DNA of 64,000 bases from a virus: positions 1 through 64,000 of IMG/VR virus record IMGVR_UViG_3300044675_005482, one strand, 5' to 3'. Below are positions 6,754 through 27,961 of the stretch, one piece after another. Under the pieces are notes generated by a model, which was not told the DNA's origin, ran no database searches, and was given only the letters and a program-made list of their open reading frames with translations. Positions within the stretch are counted from its first letter, which is position 1, and each line of letters starts with the position of its first letter. Made by a program: the position numbers and the translations under genes.

Positions 6754-6762
6754 TGGTAGAAT
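6734..6762 (+). promoter_or_regulatory. Sigma70-type promoter upstream of the holin
   Basis: TTGTAG-N17-TAGAAT with TG extension. Confidence 0.55.
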
Positions 6763-6822
6763 ATATAGTATTGGGATAAGATCCCAAAATTCTAGGGCAC
6801 AATGTCCAAGAAGGAGAATAAG

Positions 6823-7050
6823 ATGAAAAAAGATCTTAACAAGGATGGAAAGGTTACAATGACAGAGGAAATTTTAGCAGCGCTTGGAACATATGCGAGA
6901 GCATTTCTTTCAGCAGCTATTGCTCTTTACATGACTGGCAATACAAATCCAAGAGATTTGCTGATGGGCGGAATCGCAGCCGTAGCTCCAGTAATTCTTA
7001 AGGCTCTTAGCCCAAGTAACAAAGAATTTGGCTTTAAGTCAGACAAGTAA
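6823..7050 (+). CDS. Putative holin (two TM segments); alternative in-frame start at 6802
   Basis: AAGGAG SD before ATG 6823; TYARAFLSAAIAL and GGIAAVAPVILKALSP..KEFG resemble actinophage holins. Confidence 0.65.
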   Translation: MKKDLNKDGKVTMTEEILAALGTYARAFLSAAIALYMTGNTNPRDLLMGGIAAVAPVILKALSPSNKEFGFKSDK

Positions 7051-9417: not shown

Positions 9418-9419
9418 TT

Positions 9420-9725
9420 GTGTCTAGAAAATTTCTAACCCCAATTACATTAGCGCTATTAGAGGAAAATCCAGCTAATCCAATTGCTGGCCAAATTTAT
9501 TATAATACCGCAGAACAAACAATCAAAGCCTACAATGGAGTTGTTTGGTATGATGTAGCTGGACCTAAAGAAATTTTGGAGCACAGTCACGGACAAGATG
9601 GCGCTGTAGATGAAGTATTATTTGCAGACTATGTAGATGAAGATAGAGTTTTTGCAAACTCTGGAAACATTAATTCAAATTTTATAGATGATTATATAGA
9701 TGGAGGTAATGCAAGTGGCAATTAG
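9420..9725 (+). CDS. Small fibre-associated protein (GTG start)
   Basis: N-terminus resembles 7948 (xRK(F/Y)L..PxAGQIY.NT). Confidence 0.6.
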   Translation: MSRKFLTPITLALLEENPANPIAGQIYYNTAEQTIKAYNGVVWYDVAGPKEILEHSHGQDGAVDEVLFADYVDEDRVFANSGNINSNFIDDYIDGGNASGN

Positions 9726-12700
9726 AATTCAATTACGTAGAGATATAGCAGCAAACTGGACATCTTTTAATCCAATTCTCCGTGCAGGAGAAATTGGTGT
9801 TGAAACAGACACTCAAAGAATTAAAATTGGTGATGGCTCAGGAACATGGTCATCAAGACCTTATATCAACGTACTTCCATCAGAACTTACAGAACTATCT
9901 CAAGATGCCGTAAACCAGGCTCTAACGGCTGGAAACGGCATTACAAAGGTATACGATGACAATGCCAATACACTTACCCTATCTGTAGACACATCAGTAA
10001 TTGCTAATAAGACATATGTTGACACAGCCGTATCTAACTTAATTGATGCCGCTCCAGCACTTTTAGACACATTAAATGAATTAGCTGCAGCAATTGGAGA
10101 CGACGCCAACTTTGTAACAACAATAACAAGTAATATTGCTACTGCAAAGTCTGAAGCAATATCAACATCTAATGCATACACAGACACCAGAGAGCTTGCA
10201 GAAGTACTTGCTAGAAATGCCGCAATATTAGTAGCTATAAACGCTCTCACAACATCGGATATTGAAGAAGGATCAAATCTTTACTTTACTGCAGAAAGAG
10301 CACAGGATGCTGTAAATGATGCTTTAATTGCTGGAAATGGAATTACAAAGGTTTACGATGATAATTCAAATACAATAACATTATCTATAACAAATTCAGT
10401 AATAGCCGAAGCAGCACAAGATGCCGTTAACGATGCATTTGTAGCAGGAACTGCTCTTACAAAAACATATGATGACGTAAATAATACAATATCAATAGAT
10501 TTAGATAATACAACAGTTGCGCCTGGAACCTACGGATCTCAAACAAAAATTCCTAGCTTTACAGTTGATGCTCAAGGTAGATTAACTGAAGCATCAGAAA
10601 CAGATGTAGCAACAACACTTACAGTTAATGGAGATACTGGAACAACTGGTATATCCTTGCTCACAGAGTCTCTGCAGGTTTCTGGCGGAGAAGGAATTAA
10701 TATTGATGTAACAAATAACGAAATTACAATATCTGGTGAAGACGCTTCTGACACAAATAAAGGTATAGCATCATTTAATTCAACAGACTTTACTGTATCA
10801 TCTGGAAACGTATCTTTGAATAAAGACCCAGTCATTACACTTTCAGGAGATGTAACTGGAACTGGAACAATGACCAACCTTGGTAGCGTAAATATAACTA
10901 CTACAATAGAAAATAATTCTATTACACTTGGAACTGATACAGTCGGAAATTATGTAGCGGGAATAGCTGGAACAACAAATGAAATTGAAGTTACTGGATC
11001 TGGATCTGAAACAGCGTCTGTTCAAATAGGACTTCCTTCTGACGTAAGTATTACAAATGATTTGCATGTTGGAAATAACTTAGAAATCATGGGTAACTTA
11101 ACAGTTAATGGTACAACAACAACAATTAACTCATCAACTATTTCTGTGGACGATAAGTTTATTGAGCTTGGAGCTATTACAACACCAACAGATATTACTG
11201 CTGACGGCGGAGGTATTTCTCTTAAAGGAACTACAGATAAGCACCTTTATTGGTACAATACAACAGATGCTTGGACATCTTCAGAAAACATTGATATTCA
11301 TACTGGAAGAGCATTCATGGTTAATGAAGTTCCAGTGCTTACAGCAGACTCAGTCCTTAATATTCAAAAAGATAATTTAGGTAAAATCACACAAAAGGTT
11401 GCTGCTGATTTCTTCTCAAACCAAGTTCTAAGAAACGGTGAGATTGGATTTGAGACAGATACCCTGCAAATGAAAATTGGCGACGGAGTAAAATCTTGGG
11501 CCCAGCTAGAATATATAACAGTTACTCCAGACGGACTTCAGAATAATCTTGGAGACTATATTCCATTGTCAGATCTAGGTGTTGAAGATGGTGCAGTAAA
11601 GTTTGATAGCAACGGAAATGCTTTAATATTAAATAATATTATATTAAATTCCGATCATACTGGAGCACCACAATCAGGTACATTTAGCGGAATTACTGTA
11701 GAAAGAGGAACCTCTATTGATGCCTCTATTTTGTGGGACGAAACACAAGATAAGTGGGTAATGTCAGAAGACAATGGAAATTCAGTAAACCCAATAGCAT
11801 CAACAACATATGTTTCACAGTCTTTGGGCGGACATAATGAGTCTACAACTGGAATTCACGGAATATCAAACACCGCAGACCTTGTATATGATATTGATTT
11901 AAATTTAGCAATAACAGCATCTGAAAACATTTTAGAGGCATACACAGATACTCAGATTACAACACATAATACAGATACAACAAACGTTCATGGTATTACA
12001 GACACGGCTCAGCTAGTTACAAACGCTATTTTAAGCTCAAATATTCAAACAACAATTGATTATGTTGACTCAAGCGTTGCGGATCTTGGTATAGATGTTG
12101 CTAGTAATTTATCTCTACATGCCACCGATACAACTGGAATACATGGGATTACAGATACATCCGAATTAGCATATTTAGCAGATGTTTCAGCAGCTGCATC
12201 AACTGCAGCTTCAGAATTATCACTGCATTCTAATGACACAACAAACATTCATGGAATTGCCAATACCGCAGACCTTGCAACAAAGACATACGCTGATGCA
12301 TCATCAGCCGCAGCTTTAGTTTCAGCTAATTCATATACTGATGGAGAAATAACTCAATTAGAACAAAATGTTGCTGCCGACTTGACAACACTTCAATCAT
12401 CAATGGAAGACTATACAGATTACGGTATAGGACAAGAAGTTATTGCCAGAAATTCTGCAATTGCAACTTCTACTTCTAATCACAATAGCTCTACAACTTC
12501 AGTTCACGGTATTGCAGATACAGCAGCACTTGCTACAAAAACATATGCTGATAATGCGGTATCTACACACGAATCAGATACAACAAACATCCACGGAATT
12601 GCAAACACTGCTGATTTAGCAACTAAAACATATGCAGATTCTTCTTCTTCAACCGCCGCTGGATCAGCACAGAGCGCTGCACAAACATACGCAGACGGAG

Positions 12701-13896
12701 TGGTAGATACTCATAGACTAGATACTACAGATGTCCACGGAATATCAAATACAGCTAATTTAGTATACACATCAGATGCAAGACTTATAGATATGAGAAC
12801 CCCAGCTGATTTATCTGTAACAACTGAAAAAATAGTTAATCTTGCCGTAACCAACGATAAACTTGCGGGATCAATAGCACAATCTAAGATTACAAATCTT
12901 GAAACAGATTTAGGGTTAAAGGCACCAGCAGCAAGCCCAACATTTACTGGTTCAATAACAATGCCAGGAATAATTTCTGTTGTAGATCCTTCAGAAGCAA
13001 TTGTTTCAGTAGATTTATCTAATTTGCAAGACTTAACTGGAACAATTACTAGCCTACTTAATTTAAAATCAGATTTATCTAGCCCTACATTTACTGGAAC
13101 TCCATTAGCGCCAACAGCTACTTCTGGAACCAATACAACACAAATTGCAACAACAGAATTTGTTACCACTAGCATAAATGATTTAATTAATGCCGCACCA
13201 GGAGCGCTAGATACTCTTGACGAGCTTGCAGCAGCCTTAGGAGATGATGCAAATTTTGCAACAACAATAACATCTTCAATTGCCCTAAAAGCTCCGTTAG
13301 CATCTCCAACATTTACTGGCACTGTAATTCTTCCAAATTCAACAATTACAGAAGCTATGATAAGCGACGGATCTATTACAAATGCTAAGATTAGCGCAAG
13401 CGCAGCAATAGATCAATCAAAGATTTCAGGGTTGGCTACTTCCCTGAATTTAAAGGCAAATCTTGCCTCTCCAACATTTACTGGAACAGTAACAGTACCA
13501 ACACCAGTAAATCCAACAGATGCCGTAACTAAAGCATATGTTGACTCTGGAGCTCAAGACATAATTCCTTTAGATAATTTAAATAGTCAGTTTAACGGAG
13601 CCGAATCTCGGTTCCTGCCAAAATTCAATAACACCAAGGTAGATATAACAAACCCACTTCGACTTTTGATATCCATTAATGGTATAATTCAAATACTAGG
13701 AAATCAAGATAATCATTGGTTATCTCCGATATCGCAGGACGGGTTCTTTGTAGATTCCGACGGTTATTTGAACTTTGGTGAACCAGTACCAAAAGGATCT
13801 ACATTTGATGGAAGAGTAATGGGTGGTCCAACTACCAACTCTCTCAAAAAATCTCAGTATCCGTTTAGACCAATAGACATATTATTAGGAGCGTAA
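9715..13896 (+). CDS. Long fibre protein with two Mtd_N-like domains and His-pair repeats
   Basis: IQLRRD.AANW..NP.L..GEIG.ETDT..KIGDG (second partial copy near 11420-11515); AAP.xLDTL.ELAAA.GDDANF x2; SPTFTG repeats; GTG start behind GGAGG. Confidence 0.8.
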   Translation: MAIRIQLRRDIAANWTSFNPILRAGEIGVETDTQRIKIGDGSGTWSSRPYINVLPSELTELSQDAVNQALTAGNGITKVYDDNANTLTLSVDTSVIANKTYVDTAVSNLIDAAPALLDTLNELAAAIGDDANFVTTITSNIATAKSEAISTSNAYTDTRELAEVLARNAAILVAINALTTSDIEEGSNLYFTAERAQDAVNDALIAGNGITKVYDDNSNTITLSITNSVIAEAAQDAVNDAFVAGTALTKTYDDVNNTISIDLDNTTVAPGTYGSQTKIPSFTVDAQGRLTEASETDVATTLTVNGDTGTTGISLLTESLQVSGGEGINIDVTNNEITISGEDASDTNKGIASFNSTDFTVSSGNVSLNKDPVITLSGDVTGTGTMTNLGSVNITTTIENNSITLGTDTVGNYVAGIAGTTNEIEVTGSGSETASVQIGLPSDVSITNDLHVGNNLEIMGNLTVNGTTTTINSSTISVDDKFIELGAITTPTDITADGGGISLKGTTDKHLYWYNTTDAWTSSENIDIHTGRAFMVNEVPVLTADSVLNIQKDNLGKITQKVAADFFSNQVLRNGEIGFETDTLQMKIGDGVKSWAQLEYITVTPDGLQNNLGDYIPLSDLGVEDGAVKFDSNGNALILNNIILNSDHTGAPQSGTFSGITVERGTSIDASILWDETQDKWVMSEDNGNSVNPIASTTYVSQSLGGHNESTTGIHGISNTADLVYDIDLNLAITASENILEAYTDTQITTHNTDTTNVHGITDTAQLVTNAILSSNIQTTIDYVDSSVADLGIDVASNLSLHATDTTGIHGITDTSELAYLADVSAAASTAASELSLHSNDTTNIHGIANTADLATKTYADASSAAALVSANSYTDGEITQLEQNVAADLTTLQSSMEDYTDYGIGQEVIARNSAIATSTSNHNSSTTSVHGIADTAALATKTYADNAVSTHESDTTNIHGIANTADLATKTYADSSSSTAAGSAQSAAQTYADGVVDTHRLDTTDVHGISNTANLVYTSDARLIDMRTPADLSVTTEKIVNLAVTNDKLAGSIAQSKITNLETDLGLKAPAASPTFTGSITMPGIISVVDPSEAIVSVDLSNLQDLTGTITSLLNLKSDLSSPTFTGTPLAPTATSGTNTTQIATTEFVTTSINDLINAAPGALDTLDELAAALGDDANFATTITSSIALKAPLASPTFTGTVILPNSTITEAMISDGSITNAKISASAAIDQSKISGLATSLNLKANLASPTFTGTVTVPTPVNPTDAVTKAYVDSGAQDIIPLDNLNSQFNGAESRFLPKFNNTKVDITNPLRLLISINGIIQILGNQDNHWLSPISQDGFFVDSDGYLNFGEPVPKGSTFDGRVMGGPTTNSLKKSQYPFRPIDILLGA
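11833..12762 (+). repeat. Seven HxxxTTxxHGIxxTxxL protein repeats
   Basis: e.g. HNESTTGIHGISNTADL, HNTDTTNVHGITDTAQL, HESDTTNIHGIANTADL. Confidence 0.85.
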
Positions 13897-13900
13897 GCAC

Positions 13901-16900
13901 ATGGCAAGAAAAGTACTTTTGGAGACACATTACACATTTTCTCCAACCACAAAGACATTAGTAATCCCAAAGGCAATCCCAAGAGAAAGATTGCTTCTTA
14001 TAACAAACGTAACACAGAATCAGGTAATCTATAACTTCTCTGACGCATCACTCAGCGCTACATCATACGTAGCACTTGAGCAGAATGGCACAGAGACCAC
14101 AACTATTGTATTTAACTACAATACAGCATCAATGCTATCAACAGACAAGATTTCTGTAACCATTGATGACTATGAGGAGACATTTACTCCAACAGAATCA
14201 ATGTTGGATCCAACAAACAAGTTTAGAGTAACACAGCCACAAGCCCTCATTGATACAGATTTTGAATACGGTACACAGGTTTCTAAATGGGAAAATTTAT
14301 CTCTTTATAACAACAAGCCATTTGCATACGCTTCACCAACACCTATTCAGAATATTGGTTCAATTACATTTCCTACATCTTCAGCAACAGTTACAGTTGC
14401 ACTAACATCTGGAGTAGGTCCAGCAAACGGAACACCAATTACCGTTCAAGATACTTATATCACAGCAGCAAATGGAAACTATGTTGTAGAAACTGGCGGA
14501 GGAACCTCATCTTTCACATATACAGCATCAGCAAAAAATCCAAGCGCTAACATTCAGTCTATCCTAGATCCAAATAAGACAGCAATTTATACATCTCAAA
14601 TATTTACTGGAGCTAGAGTCGGATTTATTCCCGTAGTAAGCTATTCATCAAATAGAATTGATGTAACTACCACTGTAGACCACGGTCTTGCACTGGGTAA
14701 CGAAATTGTTGTAACTGGAATGACAGCTACCACAAACGCTCCAAATGGAAACTTTGTTGTAGCAACAATTCTTTCACCAACAAGATTTGCTTATTTTGCA
14801 AACGCTGTTCCAACAGGAACATTGGGTGGTCCAACAGCTATTTATGTAAGACCACAAGGAGTATTCTTGCACAGACCAGCAGACGGTGGAGTTATTTTCG
14901 GAACTCAAGCTGGATCAAACTACGGAGAAGCTTATCGTCAAACACGTCGTTACTTTAGATATCAGTCAGGTAAAGGCATTCAAATGTCTTCAGGTACAAT
15001 TCTAAAGCCATACGCAGGTATTGACTCAATTACTTCTTCAGGAACAACAGTAACTGTTGTAACAAAAGAAAAGCACTGTATCCAGCCAGGAACAATCATT
15101 AAGATTGGCGGTTGCGATCAGGCAGCATATAACGGAACATTCGTTATTAACAATATCTTAGGATATAACAGATTCTCATACACAGCACTATCTACGCCAA
15201 CAAGCGCAATTGCTACAGGAAACCCATTTGCTTCAATTGAATCTTGGTATGGATGCCAGAACAGACTAGGTTTGTTTGATAATCAGAATGGCGTGTTCTT
15301 TGAGTATGACGGAACAAAGCTTTATGCTGTCCGTAGAAACTCAACAACACAATTATCTGGTAAGGTAAACGTAACATTCGGTTCAGATGTAGTAACACAA
15401 TCTGCAGCAGAATTTCCAACATATATGAATAAGCAACTTATTCCAGGAGACTCAATTGTTATTAGAGGACAATCATACAAGGTTTCTTCAATTACAAATG
15501 ATACTACAATGAAGATTTCTCCAGCTTATAGAGGAGCAACAGCTTCATTATGTATCTATTCAAAGACAATTGATACAAGAATTCCTCAAGATCAATTCAA
15601 TATGGATAAAGCAGACGGAACAGGTCCATCACAGTACACAATGGATCTTTCAAAGATGCAGATGTTCTACATTGACTACACTTGGTACGGAGCAGGATTT
15701 ATCCGTTGGGGTGTAAGAGGTCCTAAGGGTAACATTATTTATTTACACAAGATGCAAAATAACAATGTTAATACAGAGGCATACATGCGCTCAGGTAACC
15801 TTCCAGGACGTTATTCATCAACAACAAATCCTCCGTTTACAAGCGCAACAGACACTATTCTAACAAGCTCAACATCTATTCCAGTTAATAGTACAGAATC
15901 GTTTCCAACAGCGGGAACCTTATGTATTAGAAATGGTTCACAGTACGAGTACGTAAACTATTCAGGTAAAACAGCAACATCCTTTACTGGGTTAATTCGT
16001 GCAAGACAAGGAGCTTCTGGTGTCGTAATGACAATCGGCGCAGGAAACAATATCGGAACTATTTCCGATGGCCTAGTACTTGCAAAACTTCAAGTCGGTA
16101 TGAGAGCAATTAGCTCAGAGCTTCCAGATGAAGCATTTATTTCAGCAATTAATTATGACACAGGTGTTGTTACATTAAGTCAGCCAACAGTAACAGCAAA
16201 CCCTACAGTTAGCTTCCCTGCAATGGGTTCAGATGTTCCACTACAGTTCACTCTCGATCCATTCTCACCAACTTGTGTGGAACTAGCATTCCCATCATTT
16301 GCAGCAACAATTTCACACTGGGGAACATCTGTAATTATGGATGGTCGCTACGACGAAGATAAGTCTCTTATCTTTACTTATGGACAAAGAACTGCAACAT
16401 CAATTCCTGCTGGACAAACAAGAGCACTTCTTTCAATTCGATGTGCACCTTCTGCAGATAATGGTATCGCAGCATCATTTGGTGCTCGTGAAGTAGTCAA
16501 TAGAATGCAGCTAGCACTTAGAGCGCTAGATGTTACAGCATCAGCTGGTACAGGTACACCAACAATCCTTGTAACTGCAACTCTTAATGGATTACCTTCA
16601 AGCGCAACTACATGGACAAATGCAATTGGTAACGTAACAACCCTTGTCAACTCATCACTTGCACAGATTGCAGATTACTCTGGTACATCTACCACAATTA
16701 CTGGCGGAGAAGTAACTGGCGGATTCTTCTCTCAGGGAACAAACTCTGTTGATCTTTCAACTCTTCGTGACCTAGGAAACTCAATTCTTGGTGGAGGAGG
16801 AACAGTTTCTAACGCTGGAATTTTCCCAGACGGACCAGATGTGCTTACAATTTCTGTAACAAATCTTGGTTCATCAACAGCAAGCGTGTTCTCTCGTCTA

Positions 16901-16924
16901 TCATGGACAGAAGCATCAGCATAA
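13901..16924 (+). CDS. Large beta-rich virion structural protein
   Basis: Thr/Ser/Gly-rich; repeated small beta modules (H(G/C)x..G..I...G....NG.F.V); context among fibre genes. Confidence 0.65.
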   Translation: MARKVLLETHYTFSPTTKTLVIPKAIPRERLLLITNVTQNQVIYNFSDASLSATSYVALEQNGTETTTIVFNYNTASMLSTDKISVTIDDYEETFTPTESMLDPTNKFRVTQPQALIDTDFEYGTQVSKWENLSLYNNKPFAYASPTPIQNIGSITFPTSSATVTVALTSGVGPANGTPITVQDTYITAANGNYVVETGGGTSSFTYTASAKNPSANIQSILDPNKTAIYTSQIFTGARVGFIPVVSYSSNRIDVTTTVDHGLALGNEIVVTGMTATTNAPNGNFVVATILSPTRFAYFANAVPTGTLGGPTAIYVRPQGVFLHRPADGGVIFGTQAGSNYGEAYRQTRRYFRYQSGKGIQMSSGTILKPYAGIDSITSSGTTVTVVTKEKHCIQPGTIIKIGGCDQAAYNGTFVINNILGYNRFSYTALSTPTSAIATGNPFASIESWYGCQNRLGLFDNQNGVFFEYDGTKLYAVRRNSTTQLSGKVNVTFGSDVVTQSAAEFPTYMNKQLIPGDSIVIRGQSYKVSSITNDTTMKISPAYRGATASLCIYSKTIDTRIPQDQFNMDKADGTGPSQYTMDLSKMQMFYIDYTWYGAGFIRWGVRGPKGNIIYLHKMQNNNVNTEAYMRSGNLPGRYSSTTNPPFTSATDTILTSSTSIPVNSTESFPTAGTLCIRNGSQYEYVNYSGKTATSFTGLIRARQGASGVVMTIGAGNNIGTISDGLVLAKLQVGMRAISSELPDEAFISAINYDTGVVTLSQPTVTANPTVSFPAMGSDVPLQFTLDPFSPTCVELAFPSFAATISHWGTSVIMDGRYDEDKSLIFTYGQRTATSIPAGQTRALLSIRCAPSADNGIAASFGAREVVNRMQLALRALDVTASAGTGTPTILVTATLNGLPSSATTWTNAIGNVTTLVNSSLAQIADYSGTSTTITGGEVTGGFFSQGTNSVDLSTLRDLGNSILGGGGTVSNAGIFPDGPDVLTISVTNLGSSTASVFSRLSWTEASA

Positions 16925-16946: not shown

Positions 16947-17450
16947 ATGTCTATACAAAAAGTAAAAATACCTTATAACGCTGAATTGTCTGTTAAAACA
17001 TTATCAGTTTCTGACGAAGTTGGTTTTAATGGTAACGTAACATTAGGTGGCAACATAAAGCTTACTGGGTCTCTAGATACGTCTAGCGGCTCAGTAAGCT
17101 TCACCGATGGAGTTCAGAGTAAACAAGGTGTCCCGTCTATAACAAAGATTAATCAAGTATATAATAACTACACTTTATCTGCTTCAGATTTAAGAGATTC
17201 TATAATCGAAATGAGTTTAAAAACTGCTGGAACAGTAACTATACCAGCAGACTCACCAGCATTGACTTTTCCAATAGGAACAACAATAGATATTATCCAA
17301 GCTAATAGCGGACAGATAACAATAGTTCCTGGAACTGGAGTAATTCTTAATGGAACCCCAGGATTTAAAATAAGATCACAGTGGTCTATTGTAACAATTT
17401 TAAAACGAGATGCGAATACCTGGTTGGTATTTGGCGACTTAACTGCGTAG
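16947..17450 (+). CDS. Fibre-associated structural protein
   Basis: TVTIP..FPIGT.I.IIQ..GQ..KIRSQWS..W..FGDL, a common phage fibre C-terminal module. Confidence 0.6.
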   Translation: MSIQKVKIPYNAELSVKTLSVSDEVGFNGNVTLGGNIKLTGSLDTSSGSVSFTDGVQSKQGVPSITKINQVYNNYTLSASDLRDSIIEMSLKTAGTVTIPADSPALTFPIGTTIDIIQANSGQITIVPGTGVILNGTPGFKIRSQWSIVTILKRDANTWLVFGDLTA

Positions 17451-17459
17451 GAGAACTAA

Positions 17460-19310
17460 ATGGGTAAAAAAGTTGGAATTCAAGCATCAGCCGCTGGAGA
17501 TTTTGAAGCGCCATTAGCGCCTCTTAATCCCGTAGCAACAGATGTTGGAACTAACAGACTTTTTAATAATGGAGCTGCTACAGTATCTTTTTCTATTGAC
17601 CCATTAAGTACAGTACCTACTGCCTTTGTAGTAACATCTAGCCCAGGAAACTTTACTGGAGAAGGATCAGCATCACCAATTACGGTTTCTGGATTACAAA
17701 GTAATGTAAATTACACATTTAAAGTAACTGCAAGCAATGCCAATGGAAACTCAGTAGAATCAGTTGCATCTAATCAAATATTGGTAACAACTGTTCCAGG
17801 TGTTCCAAGAACACCAAGCGCATCTTCTTCAACAGCAGATCAGGACACAGTGACATGGACTGCACCAGCAAATGATGGCGGAAAACCAATTGCAAGTTAT
17901 ACAGTTAGCTCAAGTGATACTTCTGCTCAATTACCAAAATCTATATTTAAGCAGATGTCTGGCGGTTCAGGACAAACAACTATTAACGTTGACGACAATG
18001 TTGGATTAGTAGTAGGCAATAAGGTTACTGGAATAGGAATTGGTACAAATGCAGCAATTCAAGCTATCAATGGAACAACAATAACATTAACTGTTGCAAA
18101 TTCTGGAAATGTTCCATTACAAGATGGTAAGTTTACAGATCATGCTGATACTCAAACAGGACCTATTTATTTAAATGCCACATCTCCATTAGTAATTTCA
18201 GAATTAGGTGGAACATCTCAGTCATATAACATTGTTGCTATTAATGCTAATGGAACTTCCGTTCCAGCAATTACATCACAAGTAACTACATTCTTTTCCC
18301 CACCACGCTTCTTTGGGCCACCAGCATTCTTTACGCCACCACAATTCTTTACGCCACCACAATTCTTTAGTCCTCCAAGCTTCTTTTCACCACCAAGCTT
18401 CTTTTCACCACCAGGATTCTTCTCTCCACCACGCTTCTTTTCACCACCAGGATTCTTCTCTCCACCACGCTTCTTCGGTCCTCCATTCTTCTTTGGGCCC
18501 CCAGTATTCTTTGGACCTCCAGTATTCTTTTCCCCACCTAGATTTTTCTCCCCACCAGGTTTCTTTTCACCACCAGTTTTCTTTGGTCCTCCACGATTCT
18601 TCGGCCCTCCAGGATTCTTCGGCCCTCCAGCATTCTTTACACCTCCACGCTTCTTCGGCCCCCCAGGATTCTTTGGCCCACCAGGGTTCTTCTCACCACC
18701 AAGATTCTTCTCACCACCTAGATTCTTCGGCCCACCAGGGTTCTTCTCACCACCAAGATTCTTCTCACCACCTAGATTTTGCATTCAAGAGGACACACCA
18801 GTTCTTACAAAAGACGGGTACAAAAAGGCAAAGGATATTTCTATTGGAGATACTCTATCAACACTTACTTTTGATGAAATAACACATGGAGCAGATAACT
18901 GTGCCTATGGGGTAGTTACAGTAGAGTGTTCAGAAATAGTAAACTCATGGTCTGTTGATGAATTAAAAAATTATAAGACGCTAGACTCCAAGGTTACTAA
19001 TATTTTAACTGAAACTCATTACAAAACTGTTGTTATTAATGACGATCAGACAAAAAGATTCTCTTTTAAAGAAGATGTTTTAATTCACAGAGACAATAAA
19101 TATGTTATTGTAACGGTTGAAAACCTTTCTGTAGGAGATTCGCTAGTTATTTATTCAGAAGGCTCTATTAGTTTAGTTCCAATAACTAGTTTAACATCTA
19201 TAAAAGAAAAAACAAATACAATTCTTTTCTATAGAGAGCCATACGGCATGATTGTTGCTGGAGGTATGCTTGCATACAATGGATGTCCAGTCCATATGTT
19301 GACTAACTAG
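17460..19310 (+). CDS. FN3-domain protein with 27x FF[S/G/T]PPx repeat and C-terminal Hint (Hedgehog/intein-like) domain
   Basis: FN3 motifs (GLQSNVNYTFKVTASNANG; WTAPANDGG.PI.SY); repeat aa 278-439; Hint block A CIQEDTPVLT.DG.K...ISIGD from C441; ENLSVGD; C-terminal AGGMLAYN. Confidence 0.85.
   Translation: MGKKVGIQASAAGDFEAPLAPLNPVATDVGTNRLFNNGAATVSFSIDPLSTVPTAFVVTSSPGNFTGEGSASPITVSGLQSNVNYTFKVTASNANGNSVESVASNQILVTTVPGVPRTPSASSSTADQDTVTWTAPANDGGKPIASYTVSSSDTSAQLPKSIFKQMSGGSGQTTINVDDNVGLVVGNKVTGIGIGTNAAIQAINGTTITLTVANSGNVPLQDGKFTDHADTQTGPIYLNATSPLVISELGGTSQSYNIVAINANGTSVPAITSQVTTFFSPPRFFGPPAFFTPPQFFTPPQFFSPPSFFSPPSFFSPPGFFSPPRFFSPPGFFSPPRFFGPPFFFGPPVFFGPPVFFSPPRFFSPPGFFSPPVFFGPPRFFGPPGFFGPPAFFTPPRFFGPPGFFGPPGFFSPPRFFSPPRFFGPPGFFSPPRFFSPPRFCIQEDTPVLTKDGYKKAKDISIGDTLSTLTFDEITHGADNCAYGVVTVECSEIVNSWSVDELKNYKTLDSKVTNILTETHYKTVVINDDQTKRFSFKEDVLIHRDNKYVIVTVENLSVGDSLVIYSEGSISLVPITSLTSIKEKTNTILFYREPYGMIVAGGMLAYNGCPVHMLTN
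18291..18776 (+). repeat. 27 tandem 18-nt units encoding FF[S/G/T]PP[R/G/S/Q/V/A/F]
   Basis: 486 nt = 27x18 with no indels; synonymous variation between units; nested near-exact 36-nt and 54-nt duplications. Confidence 0.97.
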
Positions 19311-19333: not shown

Positions 19334-19948
19334 ATGAATAAAATAGAAATATTCCCAGGAATATGGAAATTCGAGAATGTCTTTGACAAGTCATTTGATA
19401 TAGTAAATAAAATTGAAAAAGCTGTATCAAAAGGAGAATGCTCTTGGGCTAAAGCTCAAGTTGGTTTGGAAGAAACAGACACAGAATATAGAGACTGCTA
19501 CGACTTTAAGCTAAGCGACCTTGGAAAAGACCATAAAGTTTATAAGCATGTTTATGAATCTCAAAAGCCATACGTAGATGCATATTGTGATTACTACCAA
19601 ATAAAAATGGGATTTTGGGAATGGACCAATGTTGTTAAATATGGGCCAGGTCAATATTTTAAAGAGCATGCCGATCATGGCTGGTCTTATGTATCTACAG
19701 TTTCATTAGTATCTTATCCAAACGATGACTATGTTGGAGGAGAATTAGCTTTTCCAAAATTAAAAATATTTGAAAAGCCAAAGGCTGGGGATCTTTATAT
19801 ATTCCCATCTACTTATTTGTTTTCTCACGTAGCAATGCCAGTAAGGTCTGGCACTAAGTATTCATTTGTAACAATGCTAGATTATAATGATGATACTCAT
19901 ACTGTAGAGTATGAAGAATATATAGACAGAAAGTATGGTATTAAATAA
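19334..19948 (+). CDS. 2OG-Fe(II) oxygenase, prolyl-4-hydroxylase-like
   Basis: KY..GQ.F.EHAD; Y.NDDY.GGEL.F; FPS..FSH...V.SGTKYS. Confidence 0.9.
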   Translation: MNKIEIFPGIWKFENVFDKSFDIVNKIEKAVSKGECSWAKAQVGLEETDTEYRDCYDFKLSDLGKDHKVYKHVYESQKPYVDAYCDYYQIKMGFWEWTNVVKYGPGQYFKEHADHGWSYVSTVSLVSYPNDDYVGGELAFPKLKIFEKPKAGDLYIFPSTYLFSHVAMPVRSGTKYSFVTMLDYNDDTHTVEYEEYIDRKYGIK

Positions 19949-20646
19949 TGTTTTCTCCAAATGCGGAATATCTACATTACGGAATTGTTGTTTATAGAGA
20001 TGTTTTTACAAAAGAAATGGACCTTGTAAACAGGCTGGAAAAATCTTTAAGTAAAAGCGAAGGAAAATATCAGTGGAATCAATCTCAAACTGGGTATGCA
20101 CATACAGACCTTAAGTACAGAGATGCCCATGATTTTAAAATTAAAAGAAATGACGACGATAGCCTAATGCTATCAATGCAATATGTAAGCAAAGAAGACA
20201 GAAAAGAGGCCGAGCTTGAGCTAGAAAAAATTTGGGAAGACTCATATACTGCACAACTAAAGCCAGTAGAAGAATACCGAAATGCTTTTGGTCTTGCTCC
20301 ATTAAACTATTGGGAATCATTTAACTTTGTTAAGTATGGCCCAAACCAGCATTTCCAAGTTCATTCAGATCACGGATATTCATATATTTGTGTTCTTTCT
20401 TCAGTCGGATATATTAATGATGATTATGAAGGCGGAGAACTCTTCTTTGATAAGTTTAACTTAAAAATTAAGCCTAAGGCTGGAGACTTGTATCTTTTCC
20501 CATCGTCATATATATATTCGCACTCTGCAATGCCAGTAACTAGCGGAACAAAATATTCTATAGTAACAATGCTTGATTATCTTGAGGCCCCACATACTCC
20601 AGATTATCGTGAAATTGAAAAAAGATATACTGAAGGTTATGTATAA
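19948..20646 (+). CDS. 2OG-Fe(II) oxygenase, prolyl-4-hydroxylase-like (close paralogue of 19334)
   Basis: HSD; YINDDYEGGELFF; FPSSYIYSH; GTKYS. Confidence 0.9.
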   Translation: MFSPNAEYLHYGIVVYRDVFTKEMDLVNRLEKSLSKSEGKYQWNQSQTGYAHTDLKYRDAHDFKIKRNDDDSLMLSMQYVSKEDRKEAELELEKIWEDSYTAQLKPVEEYRNAFGLAPLNYWESFNFVKYGPNQHFQVHSDHGYSYICVLSSVGYINDDYEGGELFFDKFNLKIKPKAGDLYLFPSSYIYSHSAMPVTSGTKYSIVTMLDYLEAPHTPDYREIEKRYTEGYV

Positions 20647-21358
20647 AATACAGGCATACAGAGCAGCTGAAAATTACGCTACCTTAGCCCCTCTTGGGGT
20701 TAAGAGAGATTGGATGGAGCAAACACATGAAAGACATGCTTATACCTGTTTTCCAGTAACTCTTACAAATGGGATGGGCTGGAGTCTTTCTTTCCCAGAA
20801 GATATAACATTTGTATGGGATGGCAAATCTGATTCATCTAAAGATCATGTTAAAATTTTAGCTGGGCATAAATATTGTTATACAGAAAGAGCTAATGCAA
20901 CTATTAGCTTTAAAACTGGATTAACATTTAGAACAGAGGACAACGTTAGCTTACTAGGCATGCCAGCACCAAACTATTTTATTGATGGTGCTCAACCATT
21001 TACTACCGTAATTAGCACTTCATTTTTTACAGCAGAGTTTCCAGTAGCATGGAGAATTACAAAACCATATACCCCAATAACAATTCCAGCAGGATACCCA
21101 GTAATATCACTATTGCCAATATCTCTTAAAAACTTACAGGATTCAGAAATAGATATAGTCCCAATTAAGGATATGCCAAGATCCCCATATGCTGATCAAT
21201 ATAATCAAACAGACCATATTAAGTTTGTATCAAAAGTAGCTGAAGAAGGAAAATGGACTAATTTTTACCGTGATGCAGTGGACTATATGGGAAATAAATT
21301 AGGACAGCATGAAGTTAAAAGCTTAAAGCTTAAAGTTAATGGAGGAGATAATGCCTAA
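20639..21358 (+). CDS. DUF6065-like protein
   Basis: KRDWM..T..RHAY.CFP...NGMGW; WRIT.P; IPAG.P....PI; start moved to ATG 20639, which overlaps the upstream stop. Confidence 0.6.
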   Translation: MYKIQAYRAAENYATLAPLGVKRDWMEQTHERHAYTCFPVTLTNGMGWSLSFPEDITFVWDGKSDSSKDHVKILAGHKYCYTERANATISFKTGLTFRTEDNVSLLGMPAPNYFIDGAQPFTTVISTSFFTAEFPVAWRITKPYTPITIPAGYPVISLLPISLKNLQDSEIDIVPIKDMPRSPYADQYNQTDHIKFVSKVAEEGKWTNFYRDAVDYMGNKLGQHEVKSLKLKVNGGDNA

Positions 21359-22091
21359 AATTAAATTTGGGTCTGCAAGGCCATACAATAATCAAGAAGA
21401 ATTTAAAGAGTTGGCTCCAGCTCCTATTAAAAAATTTATGCCAGAATGGTGGAATAAGGCAACAAAATACTGGCTTGGTGACGATGGAGAATACATTCCA
21501 GCTCAATATCCTCATCAAGAGCCAGAAGAAAGATCACTTGGTTTTAAATCATGCCCAGCATTATTAGATGTGTTTAGTACTGGATACACACTGCTTACTC
21601 CTACCGACATAATGTTTGTTCAATATGAAGGCGAACCTTATATGAAAATTGATGAGCAGTTTAAAGATTTTTGTGATGCAAGGCATGCAATGCCACAATT
21701 TGTTAATCCAGCAGGATACCATGCAAAACATTTTCATTGGTGGCCAAATTGGGGAATAGAATTGCCTACTGGATATAGCGCATTAATTACAAGCCCGTTA
21801 AATAGGTTCGATTTACCTTTTTTAACCGTGGCTGGTATAATTGACAGTGATAGGTATCCTATGCCAGGATTAACTCCATTTTTCCTAAAAGAAGGATTTT
21901 CTGGACTAGTCCCAAAGGGAACTCCGTATGCACAGATTATTCCAATTAAAAGAGAAGACTGGGAGTCGGAGCACATTTATTATACAACACAACAGATGTA
22001 TGATAGGCATGAAGAAACAACAAAAAAATATAGAGTCGCTTTCGGCGGCATTTATAAAATGAAAACGTGGATAAAAAAGAATTATAACTAG
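21351..22091 (+). CDS. DUF6065-like protein (distant paralogue of 20639)
   Basis: MPEWW; KSCPALLD..TGY; PLNRFDLPF..GIIDSD; VPKGTPYAQIIPIKRE.W; GGAGG SD before ATG 21351. Confidence 0.55.
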   Translation: MPKIKFGSARPYNNQEEFKELAPAPIKKFMPEWWNKATKYWLGDDGEYIPAQYPHQEPEERSLGFKSCPALLDVFSTGYTLLTPTDIMFVQYEGEPYMKIDEQFKDFCDARHAMPQFVNPAGYHAKHFHWWPNWGIELPTGYSALITSPLNRFDLPFLTVAGIIDSDRYPMPGLTPFFLKEGFSGLVPKGTPYAQIIPIKREDWESEHIYYTTQQMYDRHEETTKKYRVAFGGIYKMKTWIKKNYN

Positions 22092-22100
22092 GAGATAAAA

Positions 22101-22826
22101 ATGGCATTTGAAAGTACAATTAGCGCAGACAATATACAAAACTATGACGCTTTAATAGAAGGCAAAAACGTAAGAACTGCTAGAAAGTCTATTACGCCGT
22201 CTGGATATTTTGGTGAGGGTCCAGAAATGATTGGCGAAATTGAAAACTTTCTTACAGAAGAAGAATGCGACTTCCTCGAAGACTTTGCTAGAAACAATAA
22301 GATTTGGGATGTTACAGAATCTCATTACAATGAAAATGGAACAATAATCTATGATCACCGTCCATGGGAAAATAGAGTTGCAACTCTTAACACATTAGAG
22401 AAAGCAAATCCAGAAGTAGTTAAAATGCTACGTGAAATTATTGCAAGACTTAAGCCAGAAATTGAAAAGTTTTTTAATGTGGCTGAAGCAGAACCAACAA
22501 ACCCAGCAATTGTAAGATGGCCAGTTGGCACTTTTCAGTTTCCGCATGCAGACAAAGAGCTGCATGAGGGTCCAGATGCTGGAACGGAAAATGATTTTCC
22601 ATGGTATGACCTAGGAACCATATTTTATTTAAACGATGATTTTGAAGGTGGAGAGCTTCATTTCCCTAGACAGCAAATTGCATTTAAGCCAAAAAGACGT
22701 GCAGTATACTTTTTCCCAGGAGACAAGAACTACATTCATGGAGTAGACAAAGTAACGGCTGGAACAAGATATACATCACCATGGTTTTGGACAATTAGAC
22801 AACTAACAAAGGAAAACAATGCTTAA
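22101..22826 (+). CDS. 2OG-Fe(II) oxygenase, prolyl-4-hydroxylase-like
   Basis: ENFLTEEEC; PHAD; YLNDDFEGGELHF; YIHGV..V..GTRY. Confidence 0.9.
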   Translation: MAFESTISADNIQNYDALIEGKNVRTARKSITPSGYFGEGPEMIGEIENFLTEEECDFLEDFARNNKIWDVTESHYNENGTIIYDHRPWENRVATLNTLEKANPEVVKMLREIIARLKPEIEKFFNVAEAEPTNPAIVRWPVGTFQFPHADKELHEGPDAGTENDFPWYDLGTIFYLNDDFEGGELHFPRQQIAFKPKRRAVYFFPGDKNYIHGVDKVTAGTRYTSPWFWTIRQLTKENNA

Positions 22827-23559
22827 TCCAGAATTAATAGAAAAGTATCCTGGCATCAAGGAGTGGAAAGATGACGTATACACAATAGAAAATTTTATAA
22901 CGGAACAAGAATCTGAAGCTATGATTAAATATTTAGAATCTTTAGTTAGCAGTGGCAGATTAAAATGGAATCAGATTTCTTTTTACGACTCATTTGCTAT
23001 GGGGTTTTGGGACTCAGATCCAACTCTACCAGAATTTGGATTGCCAGAAGATTACTTTAACAGATTAAAATTTAGATTTAAAAAAGCTGGAGAAGATATT
23101 TTTGGTCATAAGTTTGCAGAGATTAGCTATCATGCACAGAAGTGGATAGAAGGAGCATTTGCTGACTTCCATTCAGATAATTCTAAAGATGGAAAGCCAA
23201 CAGCATTTGAAAGAAGTCGATATGCTGGATTCTTGTATTTAAATGATGATTTTGAGGGTGGAATATTAAACTTTCAACACTATGACATTGCAATAAAACC
23301 TCAAGTTGGACTTATAGCAATATTTAAAGGCGGTCATGGAAACGAGCATGAGGTTACTCAAGTTAAAAATATTAAACGTGAAAGATACACCATAGGTTCA
23401 TTTTGGGATGATGCTAGAATGGAATATACAGATGAGCAAAGACAACGCTGGGCAGATGAACTAGCTGAAACTAGAAAAGAACAAGACGTCCAATATGATG
23501 AGTGGGCTAAAGATAAAGAAATTGGCAATGTTCCAGTTTATAAAGGAAAAGGTGAATAA
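22819..23559 (+). CDS. 2OG-Fe(II) oxygenase, prolyl-4-hydroxylase-like
   Basis: FHSD; YLNDDFEGG; NEHEV; ERYT. Confidence 0.9.
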   Translation: MLNPELIEKYPGIKEWKDDVYTIENFITEQESEAMIKYLESLVSSGRLKWNQISFYDSFAMGFWDSDPTLPEFGLPEDYFNRLKFRFKKAGEDIFGHKFAEISYHAQKWIEGAFADFHSDNSKDGKPTAFERSRYAGFLYLNDDFEGGILNFQHYDIAIKPQVGLIAIFKGGHGNEHEVTQVKNIKRERYTIGSFWDDARMEYTDEQRQRWADELAETRKEQDVQYDEWAKDKEIGNVPVYKGKGE

Positions 23560-24224
23560 TGTATATATATGCTAAGGATATAGAAAAAGATGTTGAAATA
23601 CTAGAAGGAAAAATATTCATCTTCAAAGATGCAATTAGTAATACCAGTTTAATTCACGAAGAGCTAGACAGCATAGATGAAAATTACGAAGACGAGACTA
23701 GCCCAAGACAAATTGGTCCATGGATTGAATGGAAATCAAATGATGATGACACAGTGTATGGAAAGCAAAAGGTTGGACTATTTACTTTTAGCAAAGAAGT
23801 ATCGAAGATGTCATTTGGAGACAAGATGGCCAAAGACCTTTGTGACACTGTGTTAAAGTGTGCAACAGGTTTATCTGAGGCATATTTTAAAACATTAAAT
23901 ATAGAAGAAGTACCACACCTTCCAGAAAGATTTGAAATAAAAGTTTACGATACTGGCACCGACATGGGAGCCCATTATGATAGACATCCATTTCCAAACA
24001 ACGAAACAATTTTGTCTGCAGTAATTTATCTAAATGATGATTACGAGGGCGGAGAGCTTCATTTCCACAACCAAGATATTACAATTAAGCCAGAAGCTGG
24101 AACGGTTATATTTTTCCCATCTACTGAAGATTTTACACACTCTTCAAAGAAAATAGAGTCTGGTAAAAAACATGCAATCCCGCTATTCTTTTACAAAAAT
24201 CCAGAAAATCCACAAAATAATTAG
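23559..24224 (+). CDS. 2OG-Fe(II) oxygenase, prolyl-4-hydroxylase-like
   Basis: MGAHYD; YLNDDYEGGELHF; FPS..FTH; SGKK. Confidence 0.9.
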   Translation: MYIYAKDIEKDVEILEGKIFIFKDAISNTSLIHEELDSIDENYEDETSPRQIGPWIEWKSNDDDTVYGKQKVGLFTFSKEVSKMSFGDKMAKDLCDTVLKCATGLSEAYFKTLNIEEVPHLPERFEIKVYDTGTDMGAHYDRHPFPNNETILSAVIYLNDDYEGGELHFHNQDITIKPEAGTVIFFPSTEDFTHSSKKIESGKKHAIPLFFYKNPENPQNN

Positions 24225-26033: not shown

Positions 26034-26375
26034 ATGGATATCAAAAAGCTAAATCATAAAGTATTAGATGAAGAGTCAACTCTTGGAATATATGTCTGGG
26101 AGATGCCCGACGGAAGATGGATTGGAGACGACGATGGCAACTTTCTTTCGATCACGTCAAAAAAAGGCAATAGATCCAGAATCGATGCTTTGGCTAGAGA
26201 AGTACGCACATTCGGTATATACGAAGGTGGGCCTAAATTTCTTTCCGCTAGGCGGAAAATCAGCGACGAAGAGTTTGAGCATCAGAAGCAAAGACTCGAT
26301 TGGGGATTAGTTCCAGATCCACTGGATATTGGAAACTATAAAGATGAAATGAAAAAACTAAGAGGTGGAAGATAA
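26034..26375 (+). CDS. Hypothetical protein preceding the portal
   Basis: TGGACT-N17-TAAAAT upstream; TAATG coupling to the portal. Confidence 0.75.
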   Translation: MDIKKLNHKVLDEESTLGIYVWEMPDGRWIGDDDGNFLSITSKKGNRSRIDALAREVRTFGIYEGGPKFLSARRKISDEEFEHQKQRLDWGLVPDPLDIGNYKDEMKKLRGGR

Positions 26376-27961
26376 TGCAATTTATTGAAGATGAAGATGG
26401 ATCAGATAACACAGTTAGCATTTCTAATGTTGCAGACTGGATGAAATTTACTGCACCGTCAGCAGTTGCAGATACAGACCCTTTTAATGTAGACGGAGAT
26501 GACCTAAAAAAGATTAACGGTCTTGGATCAACTTTCCGTAGAAAAATGGGTAGAGATATCCAAAAAAGATTTATTGGACAAGAAGGAACTGGAACACAGC
26601 AGAACCTATTAGCACAAGCCGTCACTGGCTATGCAATGTTTGACCTAATTGAGCCACCGTACAACCTTGAGTATCTTTCAAAAATTTATGAAGTATCGCC
26701 ATACAACTATTCAGCAATTAATGCCAAGGTCTCTAACATTGTTGGTCTTGGATATTCATTTATTGAAACAAGCAAAACAAATGACGCCTTAGACACCATA
26801 ACAGATGAAAAGCAGTTAGAGCGAGCAAGAAAAAAGATTAATAGAATTAAGCAGGATCTAGAAGAATGGCTAGAGTCAGTAAACGAAGAAGAAACATTTA
26901 CTGAGACATTAATAAAGGCCTATGTAGACCTAGAAGCAACTGGCAATGGATATATTGAAATTGGTAGAACAGTAGCTGGAAATATTGGATACATTGGACA
27001 TATTCCAGCAAAGACAATGAGAGTACGCAGATTACGTGATGGCTTTATTCAATTGCTTTACGGAAAGGCTGTTTACTTCCGCAACTTTGGAGACACCGAA
27101 ACAGAGAATCCTATTGCTGGTCAAGAAGATCGTCCAAATGAAGTTATTCATTTAAAGAAGTACACTCCTACAAATAATTATTATGGAATTCCAGACATTA
27201 TTGCAGCACAAAATGCAATGGCTGGAAACGAGTTTGCTGGCAAGTATAACCTAGACTACTTTGAAAACAAGGCGGTACCAAGATATATTATTACAGTAAA
27301 AGGAGCAAAGCTTTCAACAGAGTCAGAAAGAAAATTACTTGAATTTTTCCAGGTAGGTCTAAAGGGCAAGAATCATAGATCTCTATATATTCCGCTACCT
27401 CCAGATTCACCAGACTCAAAGGTTGAATTTAAGATGGAGCCAGTTGAGGCTGGAGTTCAAGAAGGCTCATTTAATACATACAGACTTTCCAACAGAGACG
27501 AAATCCTCCTTGCCCATAGAGTCCCAATTAATAAAGTTGGAACCCCAGCTGGAGTTAATTTAGCGGTTGCTAGAGATGCTGATAAAACATTTAGAGAGCA
27601 AGTCTGTGGACCAGCTCAAAATAATTTAGCCAAGAAATTAAATAAAATTATTGAAGAAAAGACAGATGCACTTCTTCTTAAATTTAATGAGTTGACCTTG
27701 ACTGACGAAGATACTCAATCTAAAATTGATGAGAGATATTTGCGTATGCAGGTAATTACTCCTAATGAGGTTAGAATTAGAAAGGGTATGATTCCTATTG
27801 AAGGTGGAGACCAGGTAGTGGATTTAAAGGCTGATGCAGCCGCTGAACAATCTGCCCAAGCTGGTAAAACTAGAGCCAGAGATTCCGAAAGATCCGCCGC
27901 TTCCCCAGATAAATCTGGCGAAGGCAGAAATGCAAAAGGCGACGGACGTCAGGTAGGATAA
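26375..27961 (+). CDS. Portal protein
   Basis: DLEATGNGYIE; EVIHLK..YYGIPD; YFENKAVP; AHRVP; ITPNEVR..GM.P..GGD. Confidence 0.92.
   Translation: MQFIEDEDGSDNTVSISNVADWMKFTAPSAVADTDPFNVDGDDLKKINGLGSTFRRKMGRDIQKRFIGQEGTGTQQNLLAQAVTGYAMFDLIEPPYNLEYLSKIYEVSPYNYSAINAKVSNIVGLGYSFIETSKTNDALDTITDEKQLERARKKINRIKQDLEEWLESVNEEETFTETLIKAYVDLEATGNGYIEIGRTVAGNIGYIGHIPAKTMRVRRLRDGFIQLLYGKAVYFRNFGDTETENPIAGQEDRPNEVIHLKKYTPTNNYYGIPDIIAAQNAMAGNEFAGKYNLDYFENKAVPRYIITVKGAKLSTESERKLLEFFQVGLKGKNHRSLYIPLPPDSPDSKVEFKMEPVEAGVQEGSFNTYRLSNRDEILLAHRVPINKVGTPAGVNLAVARDADKTFREQVCGPAQNNLAKKLNKIIEEKTDALLLKFNELTLTDEDTQSKIDERYLRMQVITPNEVRIRKGMIPIEGGDQVVDLKADAAAEQSAQAGKTRARDSERSAASPDKSGEGRNAKGDGRQVG

Follow-up and report, generated by a model that had tools for sequence, protein, structure and literature searches.

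We analyzed a gene encoding a phage protein that ends in a Hint domain, located in a 64,000-nucleotide stretch of viral DNA (positions 1 to 64,000 of IMG/VR record IMGVR_UViG_3300044675_005482; "the window" hereafter means this whole stretch). The virus genome record is 113,997 bp long and holds a single copy of the Hint domain. According to the open reading frame (ORF) list and its translation, the gene is one uninterrupted ORF, 17460-19310 on the plus strand, and codes for 616 amino acids (aa). A first-pass annotation, made from the sequence alone, had described a non-canonical Hint domain fused precisely to the end of a repeat. The features of the gene are as follows.

17460..19310, plus strand: whole gene, with leader, FN3 domain, FN3 domain with insert, Phe-Pro repeat, Hint domain and short tail (translation; full-length AlphaFold2 (AF2) model; orthologues in at least 12 IMG/VR loci).
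17517..17774, plus strand: FN3 domain 1, residues 20-105 (Pfam fn3, E 1.4e-8; predicted local distance difference test (pLDDT) of the AF2 model >93).
17787..18284, plus strand: FN3-like domain 2, residues 110-275 (AF2 strands 117-151 and 244-262, pLDDT >90).
18291..18779, plus strand: 27 FF[SGT]PPx hexapeptide units ending in ...PPRF, residues 278-440 (Tandem Repeats Finder (TRF), translation).
18780..18782, plus strand: Cys441, which is Cys1 of the Hint domain and the block A nucleophile (alignments).
18780..19280, plus strand: Hint fold proper, residues 441-607, Cys1 to Asn167 (AF2, Foldseek, VIA-align, profile matches to 2lwy and 2jmz).
18900..18929, plus strand: Cys481/Cys490, a C-x8-C pair peculiar to the YNGC sub-clade (15 sequences) and carried by a stretch inserted between block A and block B (model pLDDT 70-81).
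19062..19073, plus strand: block B equivalent S-F-K-E (Ser535...Glu538), replacing TxxH (profile alignment).
19245..19247, plus strand: Gly596, at the block F His position of inteins (alignment to 2lwy and 2jmz).
19275..19286, plus strand: block G equivalent Y-N-G-C (Tyr606, Asn607, Gly608, Cys609), aligning with H-N-x-K of most family members.
19287..19310, plus strand: seven-residue tail PVHMLTN and stop codon; non-conserved, the tails of relatives after YNGC being 3-35 aa long and unrelated in sequence.

The full-length AF2 model, computed from an alignment with 41 homologues, begins with a short, basic leader and ends with a confident domain at residues 441-610. The second FN3-like domain is interrupted by a 73-residue insert (residues 160-232; 17937-18155) that is rich in Gly, Asn, Thr and Ile, modelled at pLDDT 30-38 and missing from the consensus of 41 full-length family proteins. 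At the DNA level, TRF recognized the FF[SGT]PPx array as an 18-bp unit in 26.8 copies (18290-18772), and the encoded tract is without secondary structure in the AF2 monomer (pLDDT 41-50). The final repeat unit is shortened to ...PPRF, with Phe440 as the -1 residue, and the next codon, 18780-18782, is that of Cys441. The exact fusion point given by the first-pass annotation, and its numbering of Cys441 and Asn607, are therefore correct.

Both profile searches and structure prediction identify the C-terminal 176 aa as a genuine Hint fold, in agreement with the earlier assignment. The AF2 model of this domain, based on an alignment with 54 homologues, reached a pLDDT of 92.7 and a predicted template modelling score of 0.88. 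All top Foldseek matches were Hedgehog, intein or bacterial intein-like (BIL) structures (probability 1.0; best 1AT0, E 1.6e-6), and VIA-align superposed the model on structures of the same three kinds with Z 15-16 and a root-mean-square deviation (rmsd) of 1.7-2.4 over 129-138 residues, model residues 1..167 spanning intein residues 1..last from end to end. A family profile built from 54 relatives matched the Clostridium thermocellum BIL domain 2lwy (E 4.7e-9), the KlbA intein (2jmz, 2.5e-8) and many further inteins. The assignment rests on the fold and the family profile, because the window sequence on its own gave a sub-threshold Pfam match to Hint_2 (E 0.019, block A only); taken individually, 30 of the 54 family members reached Pfam Intein_splicing at E<=0.01. 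Pfam returned no Peptidase S74 / ICA domain at E<=1 in this protein, whose fold is that of Hint. A homologue search with residues 441-616 among proteins of 338-1078 aa found none at E<=1e-5.

The catalytic motifs of the domain depart from the canonical ones at nearly every block after the first. Block A reads Cys441-Ile-Gln-Glu-Asp-Thr. In the profile alignment, the T-x-x-H of block B is replaced by Ser535-Phe-Lys-Glu538, where Ser is tolerable at the Thr position and Glu takes the place of His. Position 4 of block F, canonically Asp, is Leu589, and position 13, canonically His, is Gly596. Block G, canonically His-Asn, is Tyr606-Asn607, with Gly608 at the +1 position of the canonical Cys/Ser/Thr and Cys609 at +2, followed by seven residues and the stop codon. 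These alignments bear out the S-F-K-E, the missing block F Asp and the Y-N-G-C end with its 7-aa tail that had been read by eye, and add the loss of the block F His.

On its sequence, the Hint domain of 17460-19310 is judged unable to splice canonically, as the first-pass annotation had argued, because it lacks a nucleophilic residue (Cys, Ser or Thr) at +1 as well as the His of block B and the penultimate His, and because its 7-aa tail is non-conserved. Protein splicing calls for His-Asn with a nucleophile at +1; here the Asn is kept, the His is lost, and the Cys is found only at +2. Inteins interrupt conserved host proteins that continue in a functional C-extein, and often carry a homing endonuclease; here nine residues (GC and PVHMLTN) follow Asn607, and the domain of about 168 aa is without an endonuclease insert. 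The protein stops nine residues past Asn607, with no room for the sterol-recognition region that follows the Hint module in Hog domains. Nor does a toxin domain stand downstream, as in pretoxin HINT modules (PF07591), a model that just 4 of 54 members match, weakly. The pretoxin-HINT and classical intein readings were rejected on this architecture. Taken as a whole, the family may be of the A-type BIL kind (HN in 77/143, no Cys/Ser/Thr at +1, best profile match to 2lwy); the clade of the window protein, however, is without the His of His-Asn.

An exhaustive search with phmmer through 1.84 billion cluster representatives gave 91 relatives. These were pooled with the Hint-bearing ORFs of 87 phage loci into 143 unique domains. 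In all 143, the Hint domain is the last element of the protein, with 0-35 residues after it. Where the sequence ahead of the domain is available, a short tandem repeat of aromatic and proline residues adjoins it directly in nearly all members, of types that include FFxPPx, FGFSPFxV, YSFTP, FPPFFPY and PPPVA. The exceptions are two tail proteins of Phage NCTB, which have Gly runs ahead of Cys1. PASTA domains, not FN3, precede the repeat-Hint cassette in 8 of 54 aligned members by Pfam (P0042, P0047, P0048, P0059, P0061 and others). Several phages encode two repeat-Hint proteins, either one of ~300-450 aa and one of ~885-1106 aa or a tandem pair: L043 (487-3144, 7995-9323), L059 (1539-4421, 9627-10934), L060 (7923-8837, 8868-9797), L067 and L069. 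The Hint cap therefore appears to be reused on different N-terminal bodies.

The family falls into four types. The first has [ST]xxH at block B, Asp at the block F His position and HN-(x)-K at the end; the second has SxxQ/E, Asp and HN-(x)-K; the third has SxxQ and ends in ...IVIS or ...LTIA, without Asn and with nothing after; and the fourth, to which the window protein belongs, has SxxE, Gly and YN[GA][CY]. Over the 143 domains, the block B His position is occupied by Gln (57), Glu (50) or His (34), the block F His position by Asp (69), Gly (33) or Gln (15), and the penultimate position by His (77), Tyr (29) or Ile (14), while position 4 of block F is variable. The SxxE motif is thus real but no speciality of this gene, the block B His being replaced by Gln or Glu in ~75% of the family. 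In a maximum-likelihood tree, types 3 and 4 each form one supported clade among the HN-bearing lineages (Shimodaira-Hasegawa-like approximate likelihood ratio test 98 and 97). These sequence relationships make YNGC a derived state, confined to one clade, of an ending that was ancestrally HN-x-K; "derived" here presumes a root outside the type 3 and type 4 clades, since the tree was midpoint-rooted for drawing only. The C-terminal motif has decayed independently in these two clades while Cys1 has remained constant.

The same survey bears on splicing, either as a true reaction that would join the repeat to GC-PVHMLTN through Cys609 or as the remnant of an intein being lost. We consider both very improbable. 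Asn607 is kept in 27 of the 32 members of the window clade and a Cys stands at +2, many relatives match Intein_splicing as noted above, and, in the manner of inteins, the domain is present in some alleles and absent from others. However, the +1 nucleophile is lacking, the would-be C-extein is short (1-35 residues) and non-conserved, no homing endonuclease accompanies the small domain, and an S-to-N shift from a Cys at +2 would need an unfavourable large ring. Some 140 diverse members under purifying selection, all at one architectural position, are also unlike a domain in decay.

Cys1 is the fixed point of the family. It is Cys in 107 of 107 alignable N-termini, an invariant column in the 41 full-length proteins, and Cys in 21/21 of the window clade, so that both the block A and the conservation expected for Cys441 by the first-pass annotation were found. 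Rare Ser1 variants occur in P0086, L040 (7992-9248) and L050 (2104-3366), the latter two ending in ...VFD plus an acidic tail; these would form an oxyester instead of a thioester.

Within the window clade (32 unique sequences, 30-83% identical to the window), conservation reaches 95% or more at just 18 of 176 positions. Besides Cys1, they include Ser95, Glu98 and Gly156 (32/32 each). Looser positions are Tyr166 (28/32), Asn167 and Cys169 (18/32, with Tyr in 11). As far as sequence conservation can tell, the strongest constraint in this clade is on the surroundings of the N-terminal scissile bond. The question raised earlier, whether SxxE and YNGC are kept in homologues, thus has a divided answer: the Ser and Glu are strictly kept in the clade, YNGC is kept more loosely, and neither is a peculiarity of this one gene. 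The -1 residue is Phe in 12 of 12 close loci. Nearly all HN-type members have a Lys at +1 or +2, whose equivalent in the window clade is Cys, Tyr or His. The YNGC sub-clade has four conserved cysteines, 441, 481, 490 and 609.

Alleles without the domain were also found. Among loci L018-L070, 32 fetched loci gave no Hint match, and 31 of them encode the same protein, with its leader, FN3 pair and Phe-Pro repeat, amid the same neighbouring genes as the Hint-bearing alleles. Three kinds of ending occur in these proteins: Cys-rich tails 10-40 residues long, seen in over half of the distinct alleles, short plain tails and acidic tails. Some end in ...PPRF plus four residues. Judged by sequence, a short-tailed Hint-less allele is almost exactly the product predicted from a cut before Cys441. 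The Cys-rich tails begin right after the repeat (L020:7989-8978, L025:7989-8987, L026:4937-5878, L049:7992-8981, and others too) and contain 6-11 Cys in the four alleles named. Such a tail may be a disulfide or metal cap that substitutes for the Hint domain.

The reading that we favour, and hold to be reasonably probable, is that of an autoprocessing Hint domain of the BIL/Hedgehog type that acts only at its N-terminal junction and so releases the repeat stalk. An invariant Cys1, a C-terminal motif that can change or be lost, the lack of a conserved C-extein, and the coexistence of capped and uncapped alleles argue that the selected job is the reaction at the Hint N-terminus; as the C-terminal motif varies by clade, the constant requirement would be the N-terminal reaction. 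The first-pass annotation had listed self-removal, ligation or cyclisation of the repeat, and a rewired scaffold as outcomes without ranking them. Of these, self-removal is now preferred on Cys1, the decay of the C-terminal motif and the Hint-less alleles, and the other two are not.

We infer the following course. In a first step, Cys441 would attack the carbonyl of Phe440 in an N-S acyl shift. The thioester would then be resolved, most simply by water, to give FN3-FN3-(FFxPPx)27 ending in ...PPRF and a Hint fragment of ~19 kDa. An N-S acyl shift followed by resolution of the thioester is the mode of BIL and Hedgehog processing domains, and BIL domains can self-cleave at their N- or C-terminus without ligating (PMC7765530). 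The conserved Ser535/Glu538 pair, possibly together with the bulky Phe at -1, would offset the lost block B His, and Asn607 and the C-terminal reaction would be dispensable. Glu538 may take over part of the role of the block B His. For the Phe there is a precedent, as Friedel et al. found that large -1 side chains, including Phe, restore the N-S acyl shift and N-cleavage in the His73Ala Ssp DnaB intein (PMC6333167); it is plausible, by this analogy, that Phe(-1) compensates for the lost His in the window clade.

Several observations weigh against this course. The -1 signal of the Glu-type members is confounded by shared ancestry, and Gln-type members often have Gly at -1 (12/47); the idea that bulk at -1 makes up for the lost block B His throughout the family was accordingly dropped as unsupported. 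With block B and the penultimate position each deprived of its His, and block F of both Asp and His, activity could be low or absent. Simple self-removal explains neither the near-invariant Lys at +1/+2 of the HN-type nor the tightly kept Tyr-Asn-Gly-Cys of the window sub-clade, and it leaves the extra Cys481/Cys490 pair unaccounted for. Cys1 might also be kept for a disulfide with Cys609 and not for catalysis. The Lys, the YNGC and the Cys pair thus leave room for a ligation reaction, or for cysteines whose role is redox or structural.

The structural role would make the Hint domain an inert scaffold that stays on the stalk as a distal knob, for binding or folding, with Cys441 structural or in a disulfide with Cys609 in oxidising water. 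The replaced canonical His and Asp positions and the four conserved cysteines of the sub-clade fit this idea, and the Cys-rich tails of Hint-less alleles suggest that a disulfide-stabilised cap would be sufficient. We nevertheless find it unlikely, since Cys1 is invariant also in clades without a second conserved Cys, and the +2 residue is Tyr in a third of the window clade (11/32). Moreover, the most constrained positions (Cys1, block A, Ser95 and Glu98) ring the scissile bond and do not form a surface patch, and the Ser1 variants fit a nucleophile but not a disulfide.

Tail-fibre-like genes lie directly upstream of the gene (9700-13896, 13901-16924 and 16947-17450), and one such gene stands immediately upstream in every related locus listed. 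The nearest neighbours on either side are the following.

16947..17450, plus strand: upstream neighbour, 167 aa, similar to the C-terminal part of a tail fibre (PHROG matches at E 1e-12 to 2e-6 to families of minor tail, tail fibre and virion structural proteins).
19334..24224, plus strand: downstream cassette of five 2OG-FeII_Oxy_3 proteins, one DUF6065 protein and one related protein (Pfam).

The nearest solved relatives of the oxygenases are the prolyl 4-hydroxylase of Bacillus anthracis, prolyl 3-hydroxylase 1 (P3H1) and the lysyl hydroxylase LH3. Considering the loci with room to show it, the cassette lies downstream of the repeat protein in 41/51 Hint-bearing and 30/31 Hint-less loci. 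Since it is present with and without the Hint domain, it goes with the Pro-rich repeat rather than with the Hint cap, and the repeat becomes a candidate substrate for hydroxylation.

The portal protein is 57-59% identical to portals of Streptomyces phages of ~127-131 kb. In the 1007-aa structural gene at 13901-16924, patches of ~70% nucleotide identity to virion genes of cyanophages S-RSM4 and S-PM2 were seen. Cyanophage-like patches in that gene beside a Streptomyces-phage-like portal (26375-27961) suggest, at the sequence level, an exchange of fibre modules between distant phage groups. The label "T4-like cyanomyophage" was considered and rejected, as it was based only on these patches and the record is 114 kb long, with a portal resembling those of Streptomyces phages.

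With this context, the Hint domain of the favoured reading would be a cap that comes off a sticky Pro/Phe stalk, itself probably hydroxylated, of a virion protein associated with the tail fibre, and would serve as a propeptide or intramolecular chaperone. Procollagen with its C-propeptide, and tailspikes with their self-cleaving chaperone domains, offer comparisons for such a cap.

The hydroxylase-like neighbours also bear on ligation, in which the Cys441 thioester would be passed to a specific nucleophile, covalently anchoring or cyclising the C-terminus of the stalk. The acceptor could be a side chain of a partner virion protein (Lys, hydroxylysine or hydroxyproline), a component of the host envelope, or Cys609 in cis, and sortase, Hedgehog cholesteroylation and the isopeptide ligation of the BUBL BIL2 would serve as models. 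We think this unlikely too, though a good deal fits it. The top structural match is BIL2 of the Tetrahymena BUBL locus (Z 16.1), which is reported to form a Lys isopeptide and to conjugate its N-extein to other proteins (PMC8616854). The near-invariant Lys of the HN-type, with Cys, Tyr or His in the window clade, hints at a functional residue by the active site; the prevalence of Cys-rich tails among Hint-less alleles makes a reactive stalk C-terminus a recurring theme; and genes resembling prolyl and lysyl hydroxylases adjoin. However, no candidate acceptor was identified, one entire clade stops at the Asn position with no residues beyond, and the window protein has neither a sterol-recognition-like nor any other adaptor region, only a non-conserved tail. 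The plain short tails of some Hint-less alleles also indicate that a covalent link is non-essential to the role of the protein.

A stronger form of this idea, which we regard as improbable, would make the domain a cis-acting, ATP-independent ligase. It would transfer the Phe440 thioester to an amine or hydroxyl of a partner, possibly one made by the adjacent hydroxylase-like enzymes, or to Cys609, and so anchor, cross-link or cyclise the hydroxylated stalk. If true, this would be a phage-encoded, sortase-like or Hedgehog-like system of protein tailoring with collagen-style chemistry.

We compared the protein with known systems. The A-type BIL domain of C. thermocellum (PDB 2LWY) is the best sequence-profile match and superposes with Z 15.6 and rmsd 1.7. 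It shares with the phage family the Cys1, the absence of a +1 nucleophile and the occurrence in variable, non-conserved proteins of surface type, as well as the His-Asn ending of most phage members. The summary in PMC7765530 of Amitai 2003 and Dassa 2004 gives self-cleavage, rather than ligation, as documented for A-type BIL domains. The phage domains differ in being always at the extreme C-terminus and, Phage NCTB excepted, after an aromatic/Pro repeat, and in being so far confined to phage genomes; the window clade differs further in lacking the block B His and the penultimate His (SxxE, YN) and in having Gly at the block F His position.

The Hedgehog processing domain (Hog/HhC; PDB 1AT0, 6TYY) superposes with Z 15.1-15.3 and gave the top Foldseek match. 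There too, Hint is the C-terminal part of a precursor and only the N-terminal junction reacts, releasing the N-terminal product via a Cys1 thioester, as is proposed for the phage protein. In contrast to Hedgehog, a eukaryotic signalling protein, the phage protein belongs to the virion and has no sterol-recognition region, no block B His and no equivalent of the cholesterol-activating Asp.

The highest VIA-align Z belongs to BIL2 of the polyubiquitin locus BUBL of Tetrahymena thermophila (PDB 6Y75, 6TMM), where the host uses a Hint domain for ATP-independent processing or conjugation. BIL2, however, is internal between two ubiquitin-like domains and keeps the block B His (H69) and the terminal Asn, whereas the phage protein has no C-terminal Lys-donor domain. 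The Ssp DnaB M86 mini-intein G(-1)F/H73A (PDB 6FRE; PMC6333167) is among the closest structural matches (Z 15.7) and combines, as the phage domain does, a Phe at -1 with loss of the block B His. There the state was engineered into a splicing intein, whereas in the phage it is natural and conserved, with Glu at the His position.

The C-terminal chaperones of phage tailspikes and fibres (Peptidase S74 type, reviewed with MYRF as the focus in PMC3742443 and PMC8326128) resemble the domain in its proposed role, assembly aid and then self-removal; the likeness is one of analogy only, as their fold and chemistry (Ser-Lys dyad, obligate trimer) are unrelated.

Finally, cultured jumbo phages carry C-terminal Hint domains on tail-module proteins that are 25-33% identical to family members: Phage NCTB (BN7874_136, _132) and Dickeya phage AD1 (gp108). 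These are annotated as "contains intein domain" or, for AD1 gp108, "virion structural protein". Unlike the window protein, they have canonical TxxH and HN and no Phe-Pro repeats. AD1 gp108 (L089:4017-5456) combines collagen-like GXY repeats, an Ig-like domain and Hint, and Phage NCTB encodes three Hint proteins in one tail module (L001:4960-6480, 6480-6941, 8305-12219), one of them free-standing at 153 aa. We found no functional study of these jumbo-phage C-terminal Hint proteins, nor any description of the present family in the open literature on Hint/BIL domains in phage tail or virion proteins and cyanophages. What is new here is the classification into four types with its tree, the recognition of the SxxE/Gly/YNGC state as that of a single conserved clade, the ranking of conservation at the level of that clade, and the link to the precedent of a His-less intein with Phe(-1).

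The known kinds of Hint domain are inteins, Hedgehog processing domains, BIL domains and pretoxin modules, to which this analysis adds a large phage-borne family of fixed architecture, in which a low-complexity aromatic/proline stalk leads to Cys1, the Hint domain and the end of the protein. The family amounts to a natural mutagenesis experiment, with His, Gln or Glu at block B, an ending in HN-x-K, in YNGC or without Asn, and alleles that have no Hint domain at all. Its members are candidates for compact tags whose self-cleavage tolerates a bulky Phe at -1. For the phages themselves, the sequences suggest that appendages of the virion undergo processing, and probably hydroxylation, once translated.

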